Origin: an uncultured Actinomycetota bacterium
GTDB taxonomy: Bacteria > Actinomycetota > Actinomycetes > Mycobacteriales > Mycobacteriaceae
Reading direction: 5' to 3'
Assembly: GCA_963697475.1 (NCBI GenBank)
Contig: CAVOOG010000002.1
Location: forward strand, 3,038 to 67,037
DNA length: 64,000 nucleotides
In this document: positions 17,353 to 19,953 of the stretch, piece after piece
Position numbering within the stretch: position 1 is the first letter of the stretch
Layout of the letters: each line of letters starts with the position of its first letter
Program-made: the position numbers and the translations under genes
Notes under the pieces: generated by a model
What the model was told of the DNA's origin: nothing
Seen by the model: only the letters and a program-made list of their open reading frames with translations
The model's database searches: none

Positions 17353-18098
17353 CTGCGCCCATGTTGCATCCTGCAAGTTGGACTGGACTAGCGGGTGGGA
17401 GTCCCGCCCCGGTAGGCACCGGAGCGCCGGGTAGCAGGCCCGGGTTCGTCGTCGAGAGGCGGCGGGCTAAGCGGGGTGTCAAGAGCCTCTTTGGAGGGAG
17501 CAAGAGCGCGGGCCGTAGCGTCATCCGGCGCGAGTCCTGCAGCCTCGTCACAGTCACAATGGAGGAGCCGAGCCGCTCATGTCACGGCGAAGGTCTATGT
17601 TTGTCGAGCCCTGGTCCGGGGTCAGCTCGGCGGGTCCTTCCGGGGTACGGGGAGCGGCACGTGTGCACAGTTCAGTCGGGAACAGGAGAGGCCCGTCTGC
17701 CCCTTCTGCGTCGGGCAAAGACCGGGGGTATGGGCCGATGGTGAAAATCCTTGGAGGGCAGCGGGAGTCTGAGGGGGTCGTAGTACCGCTGGTCGGCGTC
17801 GCGGGCACTCCGAACGGCGGGGTGATCTCGCCGTTGTTGGCCAGCGTCTCCCTGCATGTGCTCGATACTGAACTTTCCCGCGGGAATGTGCGTGCCGGAC
17901 GAGCCGATCAGCGGAGCGAACAGTGGTTTAACGGGCACGGCCTGCACCGGCTTCGTGGCACCATCCGCTACCCAAAGGCTGCGTAACCATGTCAAGAAGA
18001 TCATCGGTAAGCCGTGTGCGGGAAAACCGCACGCAGGGATTGAAAGGGGGATGGGGAAACAGACCCGCACTGCGGGCACTGCGCCCCTGACTACCAAT
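17353..18098 (+). mobile_element. Group II intron with internally deleted intron-encoded protein
   Basis: 5' CTGCGCCC (GTGCG-like); domain V AAGCCGTGTGCGGGAAAACCGCACGCAGGGATT at 18009-18041; 3' end CTACCAAT; RT remnant GTPNGGVISPLLAS..LHVLD joined to a C-terminal remnant HRLRGTIRYPKAA*. Confidence 0.85.
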
Positions 18099-19953
18099 GG
18101 CTCAGGGCCACGACGACGTAGCGGACGGCCTGCTCCGCATCGAGGACTGCCTGGATTCCGAGGGCGGTGTGGTCCTGCCCGCGGGCGTGACGCTGATCTC
18201 GCTGATCGAGCGCAATGTCGCCAATGTCGGTGATTCCGTTGCCTATCGATACCTCGACTACAGCCATTGCGCCGAGGGACAGGTCGCCGAGCTGACCTGG
18301 ACGCAGTTGGGCCGCCGGCTGCTGGCGGTCGGCGCGCACATCCAGAAAGCCGCGTCCTGGGGCGATCGGGTGGCCATCCTCGCGCCGCAGGGACTCGAGT
18401 ACATCACGGGCTTCTTCGCCGCGATCAAGGCGGGCACCATCGCGGTGCCGCTGTTCGCCCCGGAACTGCCCGGGCACGCCGAGCGCCTGGACATCGCGCT
18501 CGCAGACGCCGCTCCCCGCGTGGTCCTCACCACCGCGGCGGCGCACGAATCGGTGCGCGGCTTCCTCAGCCGGCTGCCGTCCGCGCGGCGACCGGAGGTG
18601 ATCGTGATCGACGAGATCCCGGACTCGGCGGCGGAGGATTTCGCAGCCACCGTCATCAATGTCGACGACATCTCACACCTTCAGTACACCTCGGGTTCGA
18701 CCCACCCGCCGGTGGGCGTCGAAATCACCCATCGGGCCGTCGGCACGAACCTCATCCAGATGATCCTGTCGATCGACCTGTTGGACCGAAACACCCACGG
18801 CGTCAGTTGGTTACCGCTCTACCACGACATGGGCCTGTCGATGATCGGGTTTCCCACCGTCTACGGCGGGCATTCCACCCTGCTGTCACCGACGGCGTTC
18901 ATCCGGCGGCCGCAACGGTGGATCCAGGCCATGTCGGCCGGATCCCGGGAAGGCCACGTGGTCACTGCCGCACCGAATTTCGCCTACGAATGGACCGCGC
19001 AGCGCGGCCTGCCGGATCCGGGCGAGGACATCGACCTGAGCAACGTGGTGCTGATCATCGGTTCCGAGCCGGTCAGCATCGACGCCATCCGCACGTTCAA
19101 CGTCGCGTTCGCGCCACATGGATTGCCGGCCACTGCGTTCAAGCCATCCTACGGGATCGCCGAGGGGACGCTGTTCGTCTCGACCATCGCACCGGACGCC
19201 ACGGCCACCGTCGTCCATCTCGACGGTGCCCGGCTGGCCGCCGGGCAGGCTGTACCGGTGGTGGCTGACCACCCCGGCGCCGTGGCGCAGGTATCCTGCG
19301 GCCAGGTGGCCCGGAGCCAATGGGCGGTGATGGTCGATCCGGGCAACTGTACGGAAGTGCCAGATTCCCAGGTGGGCGAAATCTGGCTACACGGTGAGAA
19401 CATCGGCCGCGGGTACTGGGGTCAGCCCGAGATGAGCCGAACGACGTTCGGCGCCAAGCTCGTACAGCGTCTCGAGGTGGGTAGCCATGCCGACGGCACA
19501 CCGGACTCGGCCACCTGGCTGCGCACCGGCGACCTCGGCTTCTATCGTGACGGCGAACTGTATGTCACCGGCCGCATCGCGGATCTGGTCACCGTGGATG
19601 GCCGCACCTTCTACCCCCAGGACATCGAGGCGACGGCGGCGGAGGCGTCGCCGATCGTGCGGCGCGGATACGTCGCGGCGTTCTGCGCACCCGCGGGGGA
19701 GTTACCGGGATCGCAGACCGACGACGCCGCACCGGTGCTGGTGATCATCGCCGAACGTGCGGCCGGCACCAGCCGCACCGACCCGCAGGTGGCCCTCGAC
19801 GCGATCCGCGCCGCGGTCCTGGCCAAGCACGGCGTCGAGGTGGCCCAGGCGCACTTGGTGCCGGCCGGGGCGATCCCGCGCACCACGAGCGGGAAGCTGG
19901 CTCGACGCGCATGCCGTACGGAATACCTCGACGGCAGCCTGAAGGTACGTTGA
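18097..19953 (+). CDS. fadD31: Fatty acyl-AMP ligase, FadD31-like
   Basis: [59 protein letters not shown] closely resemble mycobacterial FadD31 as recalled. Confidence 0.88.
   Translation: MAQGHDDVADGLLRIEDCLDSEGGVVLPAGVTLISLIERNVANVGDSVAYRYLDYSHCAEGQVAELTWTQLGRRLLAVGAHIQKAASWGDRVAILAPQGLEYITGFFAAIKAGTIAVPLFAPELPGHAERLDIALADAAPRVVLTTAAAHESVRGFLSRLPSARRPEVIVIDEIPDSAAEDFAATVINVDDISHLQYTSGSTHPPVGVEITHRAVGTNLIQMILSIDLLDRNTHGVSWLPLYHDMGLSMIGFPTVYGGHSTLLSPTAFIRRPQRWIQAMSAGSREGHVVTAAPNFAYEWTAQRGLPDPGEDIDLSNVVLIIGSEPVSIDAIRTFNVAFAPHGLPATAFKPSYGIAEGTLFVSTIAPDATATVVHLDGARLAAGQAVPVVADHPGAVAQVSCGQVARSQWAVMVDPGNCTEVPDSQVGEIWLHGENIGRGYWGQPEMSRTTFGAKLVQRLEVGSHADGTPDSATWLRTGDLGFYRDGELYVTGRIADLVTVDGRTFYPQDIEATAAEASPIVRRGYVAAFCAPAGELPGSQTDDAAPVLVIIAERAAGTSRTDPQVALDAIRAAVLAKHGVEVAQAHLVPAGAIPRTTSGKLARRACRTEYLDGSLKVR

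Follow-up and report, generated by a model that had tools for sequence, protein, structure and literature searches.

A degenerate group II intron in the start codon of a mycobacterial fatty acyl-AMP ligase gene, and its relatives at the first codon of presumed leaderless genes in Actinomycetota

The 64,000-nt stretch of DNA analyzed here (the window) comes from contig CAVOOG010000002.1 of an uncultured member of the Mycobacteriaceae (assembly GCA_963697475.1, positions 3,038 to 67,037 of the forward strand), and carries an element of about 740 nt, derived from a group II intron, at the start of fadD, a gene for a fatty acyl-AMP ligase; the element, its parts and the gene all lie on the plus strand. 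The reading that we consider quite likely is that this element is the fossil of a group II intron which inserted into the start codon of a leaderless ligase gene, has since been disabled, and now forms a translated leader of 738 nt. The copy would belong to a lineage, with an intron-encoded protein (IEP) lacking an endonuclease domain, that inserts at the start codon of leaderless genes, downstream of a -10 box and a spacer of 6-7 nt and at an ATG or GTG (RTG), and it would have landed in the ligase ATG because the site (CTTAGACTGCGCCCATG/G, the slash marking the insertion point here and below) resembles the target of that lineage. The host start codon would have stayed at the 5′ junction, while an ATG belonging to the intron itself would have come to sit directly before the second codon of the host gene.

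The assignment to group II introns is supported by a covariance-model search, in which RF02003 (group-II-D1D4-4) was matched over its full model at 17389-17523, a conserved domain I segment, with 81.9 bits (E 2e-16; gathering score 49). The RF00029 model for domains V and VI gave only 30.6 bits at 18007-18070, below its gathering score of 40. The parts of domain V are nevertheless visible at 18009-18041, where a tetraloop accompanies the AGC triad (18010-18012), the AC bulge (18031-18032) and the two mismatches that a sequence-only reading of this DNA had described. One of these mismatches, G18014:G18036, results from a private C-to-G change at 18036, a column that is C in 71 of 71 intact relatives, whereas the other, G18011.A18039 opposite the G of the triad, is family-wide. 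A domain VI-like region extends over 18044-18096, where an alignment fold of seven copies revealed compensatory changes in the inner helices, and A18093, within CUACC, is a candidate branch point. The placement of the 3′ end at 18070 that follows from the RF00029 match was rejected, since the insert, as well as the similarity among seven and then about 70 copies, reaches 18098/18099. In the 5′ part, a hairpin at 17572-17588 (GCCG/CGGC stem, loop CUCAUGUCA), whose sequence is conserved in relatives, contains a candidate exon-binding site 1 (EBS1), CAUG, which would pair with the exon end ...CAUG; bearing on this pairing, the base preceding RTG is C at 57 of the 68 insertion sites of the lineage. 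That the element might be no intron at all, but a chance match or a fragment of some other mobile DNA, for example one end of an ISAzo13-family insertion sequence (IS), was considered because a 48-nt segment 90% identical to 17347-17394 lies directly beside an IS of that family on contig C1 of the same genome. This segment was at first a candidate for an IS inverted repeat, but the repeats stop before it, and it is made up of a homing site at the IS end and the initial 32 nt of the same intron; together with the E value of 2e-16 and the collinearity with 80 intact introns, which exclude chance, this refutes the idea, and we give it practically no credence.

The boundaries could be derived from empty alleles. 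A search of 41 relatives yielded eight intron-free fadD alleles, those of G002 and seven more congeners, each with a single ATG; in G002 the upstream and coding regions are contiguous (...GCGGTGCTTAGACTGCGCTCATGGATCGCGCC...), whereas the window reads ...GCGGTGCTTAGACTGCGCCCATG/TTGCATCC...CTACCAATG/GCTCAG across the two junctions. The relic, which is missing from the G002 allele and is collinear in three blocks with the intact intron of a further relative, G005, measures 736 nt and spans 17363-18098 or, alternatively, 17364-18099, the insert starting either at G17363 (GTTGCATCC...) or at T17364. The sequence-only reading, which had the intron, its domain V, the remnants of its IEP and its 3′ end right, had put the 5′ boundary at the CTGCG of 17353-17357 and the length at about 746 nt, and neither value stands: the intron-free alleles read ...TGCTTAGACTGCGCTCATGGAT..., a stretch that contains this CTGCG, which is thus native DNA upstream of fadD. 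At the 3′ end, the terminal CTACCAAT occupies 18091-18098, and its AT (18097-18098) together with the exon base G18099 makes up the ATG that heads the 618-aa ligase open reading frame (ORF; 18097-19953) in the unspliced sequence, as had been proposed.

Since ATG is present at both junctions, four registers are conceivable, all leading to one identical ligated product. A register in which the intron includes the 5′ RTG and ends in ...CTACCA was rejected. The intact G005 intron resides in an IS, two empty copies of which read AATCCGTGGATGGG and not ...ATGGATG, the filled site being AATCCGTG/TTGCG...CCAATG/GATGAG, and therefore the 5′ RTG is not part of the intron. Likewise, intron copies that are identical over 1984 nt within one metagenome-assembled genome (MAG) have ATG at some sites and GTG at others, so that the 5′ codon must be derived from the host. 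Two registers are left, 17363-18098 (G...AAU) and 17364-18099 (UUGCA...AAUG), and the DNA cannot decide between them, because G flanks both junctions and the ligated exons are identical. Depending on the register, the termini are G/UUGCA...CCAAU/G or /UUGCA...CCAAUG/, to be compared with the 5′ GUGYG and 3′ AY of group II introns; GUGCG follows the RTG in a minority of relatives. Exon 1 ends in ...GCGCCCAT(G), and the same ...CATG context is seen in the intron-free alleles. In both registers splicing would restore ...CCCATGGCTCAG, and with it the ATG, the frame and an N-terminus of 10 residues, equal in length to that of the empty alleles. It is on this point that the earlier interpretation has to be revised: the IEP-deleted intron and its terminal ATG hold, but the statement that splicing would remove the start codon does not, as the intron lies inside the original ATG (17361-17363, now at the 5′ junction and the single ATG in empty alleles), and intron-free alleles with the same ATG context, which that reading had named as an observation that would speak against it, do exist. 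With an ATG at both junctions the ORF has a start codon whether the transcript is spliced or not, and splicing would rebuild a leaderless mRNA.

How far the copy has decayed is evident from the comparison with G005, whose intron of 1986 nt encodes an IEP of 501 aa (P0001) with the domains RVT_1 (residues 161-371) and GIIM (400-469), ending 32 residues after GIIM and without an endonuclease domain. The window copy aligns with this intron in three collinear BLAST blocks (17347-17799, 17798-17894 and 17885-18100). At the first deletion junction (17798-17799), where the adjacent blocks are 775 nt apart in G005, about 777 nt were lost, corresponding to IEP residues ~22-279 (RT0 to RT3 of the reverse transcriptase, RT); the second (17885-17894), with an imperfect microhomology of about 10 nt, marks a loss of about 480 nt, corresponding to residues ~311-468, which include the YADD motif and all of the X/maturase domain. 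Each deletion preserves the reading frame, and together they took out the RT core along with the maturase domain. What is left of the IEP is an ORF of 82 codons (17738-17986) with native start and native stop, composed of residues 1-21, 280-310 and 469-501 of the intact 501-aa protein; BLASTP against P0001 aligned residues 3-28 (E 5e-8), 280-310 (E 7e-15) and 469-501 (E 2e-17), and a Pfam search of the 82-codon ORF found no domain, RVT_1 and GIIM being lost. Upstream of it, a frame without stops runs for 127 codons from the host ATG through the 5′ half of the ribozyme (17361-17744), and its TGA (17742-17744) overlaps the IEP start in the sequence ATGGTGA.

The element is present once in this genome, an assembly of 4.2 Mb in 22 contigs with an estimated completeness of 100%, in which the window is part of contig C2. 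A search of the genome for a cognate IEP found none; the only other IEP, on contig C19, is 40% identical to that of the window lineage. The window copy shares 92-94% identity with its nearest intact relatives, and no sequence matching across the deletion junctions was found in the 41 relatives and 401 genomes of the order. This leads us to reject, for the genomes searched, a family of mini-introns mobilized in trans; with no cognate IEP in the genome either, mobilization in trans as suggested for the relic finds no support. Contig C1 (C1:223909-223956; L003 2009-2056) harbors a stub of the same intron, made up of the homing-site-like CTTAGCCTGAATCCGTG and the first 32 intron bases, after which the similarity breaks off; these 32 bases are identical to the window copy, including an unusual A at intron position 6, and the stub directly adjoins the ISAzo13-family IS mentioned above (L003 689-2014), upstream of an AbiEi-like gene.

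The RNA part has suffered as well. Among columns that are at least 97% conserved in an alignment of the 71 intact relatives (one badly aligned row per segment, with 243 and 15 deviations, was left out), the window copy deviates at 8 of 243 in the 5′ RNA segment and at 2 of 111 in the 3′ segment, whereas intact copies deviate at a median of 0 and at most at 4 per segment. Given the two in-frame deletions, the lost domain V pair and a genome devoid of a cognate maturase, the copy would neither move nor splice, and immobility and absence of splicing are most likely its present state. An ORF-less intron that still functions would be the obvious alternative, one that splices alone, with the IEP from contig C19 or with a host factor, regenerating leaderless fadD mRNA and normal expression. 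We regard this as unlikely, although several observations would agree with it: the domain I core still scores 81.9 bits, domains V and VI and both termini are all present, the host ligase ORF is intact, the genome contains a second intron that is apparently intact and encodes an IEP of 490 aa, and splicing in trans has been documented for ORF-less bacterial introns (PMC4424553). However, the broken domain V pair concerns a position that is invariant in 71 relatives, there are more changes at invariant positions than in any intact copy, and the 5′ exon would be of 2-3 nt only if transcription starts at the ATG. The sole available IEP, moreover, is only 40% identical, and the known cases of splicing in trans involve closely related introns (PMC4424553).

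The second intron just mentioned, on contig C19 (L007 ~3400-5400), is of another type and apparently intact, with an IEP of 490 aa containing RVT_1 and GIIM (3862-5334) and a domain V at 5349-5400 (RF00029, 45 bits).

If the intron no longer splices, the question is how the ligase is expressed. The ligase ORF (18097-19953) is intact; it matches NCBIfam NF009124 with 1072.6 bits (cut-off 922) over residues 6-617, and Pfam AMP-binding as well. It has no start other than the intron-borne ATG at 18097, which is the terminal ATG of the intron lineage, and neither a Shine-Dalgarno sequence nor a -10 box of the leaderless type precedes it. The native upstream DNA does contain such a hexamer, TAGACT (17349-17354), 6 nt upstream of the original ATG, and the arrangement TANNNT-N6-ATG is kept in the eight intron-free fadD alleles, where no Shine-Dalgarno sequence is found either. 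For leaderless translation in mycobacteria, an ATG or GTG at the 5′ terminus is both required and sufficient, and promoters directly upstream of leaderless RTGs were described by Shell et al. in 2015 (PMC4633059). From its position TAGACT would be the -10 element of the fadD promoter, and the codon at 17361-17363 is probably the 5′ end of the transcript. A scan with the sigma-70 consensus gave no match, a consensus that is unsuited to mycobacterial TANNNT promoters.

From the old promoter TAGACT, transcription would start at or near A17361, leaving a 5′ exon of 2-3 nt only, and the relic would act as a translated leader of the ligase gene: ribosomes would read the 127-codon stop-free frame through the ribozyme, terminate, and reinitiate at the 82-codon IEP stub, which ends 110 nt upstream of the ligase ATG. 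The ligase would then be made only by internal initiation at the ATG at 18097, or by reinitiation after the stub, probably at a reduced level. A passive 5′ leader is most likely what the relic has become. One could also imagine that it has been exapted as a regulatory leader or switch, its structure or translated frames controlling fadD translation through termination-reinitiation or a conditional fold around the ATG at 18097. In its favor, both deletions are in frame, the 127- and 82-codon frames end at native stops, and the annotated ATG of an O-methyltransferase gene on a Mycobacterium chimaera plasmid likewise comes from a relic of this lineage, a 3′ piece of 99 nt. A frameshift, furthermore, would carry ribosomes over the fadD ATG in the frame 17856-18233, and one may speculate that this is why deletions that kept the frame have survived. 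Yet we find exaptation improbable, because all of these features were inherited from the lineage rather than acquired, because the derivative occurs in this genome only among those searched, so that its conservation is not demonstrable, and because neither a Shine-Dalgarno sequence nor a leaderless-type -10 box stands before 18097. The RNA fold of the 3′ region and junction was no better than that of shuffled sequences (z = -1.1), a value that is uninformative in itself and lends no support to a switch.

The interpretation as a disabled fossil with a passive, translated leader must be weighed against several points. The start site of transcription, the absence of splicing and the route of translation are all deduced from sequence. 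The damage to the ribozyme is mild: RF02003 still scores well above its gathering score, neither the stop-free frame nor the ATGGTGA overlap has been disrupted, and the candidate branch A survives. Some group II introns, besides, self-splice without a maturase. That both deletions are in frame has a chance of 1 in 9, and could hint at selection on the remainder. Finally, the intact ligase ORF fits continued expression by some route.

The intact IEP used as a query retrieved 80 full-length relatives with IEP identities of 76-100%, from Mycobacterium, Mycolicibacterium, Mycolicibacter, Gordonia, Nocardia, Saccharopolyspora, Kitasatospora, Streptomyces and many MAGs; the lineage is widespread in Actinomycetota, and intact copies are available, for example, from Mycobacterium celatum DSM 44243 and Mycolicibacterium austroafricanum DSM 44191. 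After location of the junctions and removal of duplicate flanks, 68 insertion sites were available, some of which may be orthologous. The pattern TANNNT-N6/7-RTG occurs at 62 of the 68, with a spacer of 6 nt at 32 sites and of 7 nt at 30, and three further sites have a spacer of 8 nt; the junction codon is ATG in 50 cases and GTG in 17. By comparison, only 0.39% of 15,609 other RTGs in the same loci show this spacing, and sites with the promoter-plus-start-codon pattern are accordingly favored about 230-fold over chance. The window site, TAGACT-gcgccc-ATG, fits. Judging from the spacing of the -10 hexamer, this is presumably the geometry of mycobacterial promoters giving rise to leaderless transcripts. 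Upstream conservation is limited to the hexamer, the middle three bases of which vary, a G following it and a C before the RTG (57 of 68), about 4 nt (CRTG) being conserved at the junction, and spacers of 6 or 7 nt occur in equal shares; with hexamer and spacing variable in this way, base pairing between the intron and the -10 box is not supported.

A single MAG, MFD09286.bin.1.212, has at least five copies at five different genes (L060, L061, L063, L067 and L069), with 99.95-100% identity over 1984 nt, which implies that the lineage is currently mobile. Among the copies at L050-L129, most have a T directly after the 5′ RTG, and a minority have a G there, giving the canonical GTGCG; T-type copies are followed by an exon-2 base G (36) or A (16), and G-type copies by A (8) or C (3), with exceptions at 0 of 63 sites. 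This correlation may reflect a pairing, or else two sub-lineages with different EBS3.

The 3′ end CTACCAATG, matched in the window at 18091-18099, is invariant in relatives apart from two Streptomyces plasmid copies that have CCAGTG; the terminal ATG is therefore a trait of the family and not a local accident. At 47 of 56 sites this ATG opens an ORF of at least 100 aa, and the genes headed by it include those for an alpha/beta-hydrolase (G015), a phosphatase-like protein (Embleya), an APH-like protein (Streptomyces) and an annotated O-methyltransferase (M. chimaera plasmid). In the last case (Mycobacterium intracellulare subsp. chimaera plasmid NZ_CP012886.2, L047 2601-2699), a relic of roughly 100 nt (99 nt) consists of the IEP tail and domains V and VI only, and the O-methyltransferase gene is annotated to begin at the terminal ATG of the relic, indicating that relics shrunk further than the one in the window can still supply a start.

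A second shared trait concerns the 5′ half. In 68 of 77 copies no stop interrupts the frame set by the host start codon before the IEP begins, over a 5′ ribozyme segment of ~365 nt, whereas each of the other two frames is open in 0 of 77; the stops per frame number 7, 163 and 248 over 58 distinct sequences. The open frame ends either with a TGA overlapping the IEP start (ATGGTGA) or with a TAA 4 nt before it, and in every relative the IEP starts 370-377 nt from the junction; the window copy keeps this layout with 17361-17744 followed by 17738-17986. The simplest reading would be that ribosomes enter at the host codon, translate domains I-III and then reinitiate at the IEP. Taken together, the relic could be the fossil of a specialized lineage that homes to the first codon of leaderless genes and translates through its own ribozyme from the 5′-terminal AUG or GUG of the host, by way of ~125 stop-free codons and an ATGGTGA hand-over, donating a spare AUG to the gene, with a targeting that may depend on the promoter; we would put the chances of this broader proposal at about even. 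Targeting might, for instance, involve the open complex of RNA polymerase, the intron reverse splicing at +2/+3 into the non-template strand, which is single-stranded there; this would fit the flanks because only the -10 box, at variable spacing, and CRTG are conserved.

Full-text literature searches on group II introns and leaderless genes returned no relevant description of a group II intron lineage homing to leaderless genes. Group II introns associated with start or stop codons are, by contrast, on record: they belong to IIB1 and were reported by Michel, Costa, Doucet and Ferat in 2007 in Biochimie (Avi.groEL and EcKTE56.groEL), as cited in PMC12584367. As far as can be judged from the summary of that work in PMC12584367, the IIB1 lineage and the present one are alike in being monophyletic, tied to start or stop codons, inserted inside the codon and able to recreate a working codon with intron bases, UAA turning into UAG in the groEL case and an ATG being brought in here. 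In the same account, the IIB1 lineage has a 5′ insertion of 300-700 nt, whereas the whole 5′ segment here amounts to 370-377 nt; and EcKTE56.groEL encodes an RT bearing an endonuclease, whereas the IEP here is RT plus X only, at 501 aa. Also unlike the IIB1 lineage as summarized there, the present one is flanked by a -10 box and a leaderless start codon and has a stop-free frame leading from the host codon to the IEP.

Bacterial introns without an ORF are uncommon and are usually accompanied by a closely related IEP (PMC4424553). The relic resembles the ORF-less and IEP-degenerate introns, such as those of Trichodesmium dnaN, the Thermosynechococcus copies, C.te.I1 and O.i.I2, in having lost IEP coding while keeping ribozyme domains within a protein gene (PMC4424553, PMC12584367). 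It differs from the functional cases among them, which have a closely related IEP elsewhere or robust self-splicing (PMC4424553, PMC12584367), in that only an IEP of 40% identity is at hand and an invariant pair of domain V is damaged.

With regard to class, the lineage resembles group IIC introns in having a compact ribozyme, an IEP without endonuclease, a functional DNA feature as the target and a very short intron-binding site 1 (IBS1). Group IIC (class C) introns home to transcription terminators, whereas the target here is a promoter plus start codon and not a hairpin. A copy on a Streptomyces scopuliridis plasmid (L045 2440-2860), truncated at its 3′ end, lies right after a long terminator-like inverted repeat followed by CATG, has no -10 box, and so resembles group IIC targets in its placement. 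There is also a likeness to the endonuclease-less classes E and 'g1' (Ca.ac.I1 and Rh.js.I1; Toro and Martinez-Abarca 2013, PMC3552965), whose IEPs have RT and X with a short C-terminal extension and many of whose members are actinobacterial (PMC3552965). This assignment is a lead only; insertion sites are not discussed in PMC3552965.

The relic alone is an ordinary case of mobile DNA decay. It does set a trap for annotation, as the ATG chosen by gene callers for the ligase is intron DNA, and the same applies to the O-methyltransferase on the M. chimaera plasmid. The lineage, on the other hand, would represent a retroelement adapted to the leaderless gene architecture typical of Actinomycetota, which appears to borrow both the transcription start and the translation start of the host for its own expression and which, with the substitute start codon that it brings along, limits the harm done to the host. 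It raises questions that can be tested experimentally, namely whether splicing occurs with a triphosphorylated 5′ exon of 2-3 nt, whether a ribozyme that is translated through remains active, and whether the transcription bubble can serve as the DNA target of the intron ribonucleoprotein.

Two minor observations were made in the course of the analysis. Matches to the Rfam family Ms_IGR-7 at L029 2863-2977, L034 2883-2999 and L007 2208-2322 (minus strand), with 31-40 bits against a gathering score of 45, coincide with the left end of an IS that begins with CTAAGCCTGAATCCGTG/G, one of the homing sites of this intron, and this small RNA family may really be an IS end or leader. In the window itself, about 67 nt of the spacer between glgP and fadD (17180-17248) match many places in congeners at 77-90% identity and one in the same genome, C17:4044-4110, at 78%; the counterpart of this segment in G002 lies 5.5 kb upstream of fadD, which indicates that the genome studied here has lost DNA there.

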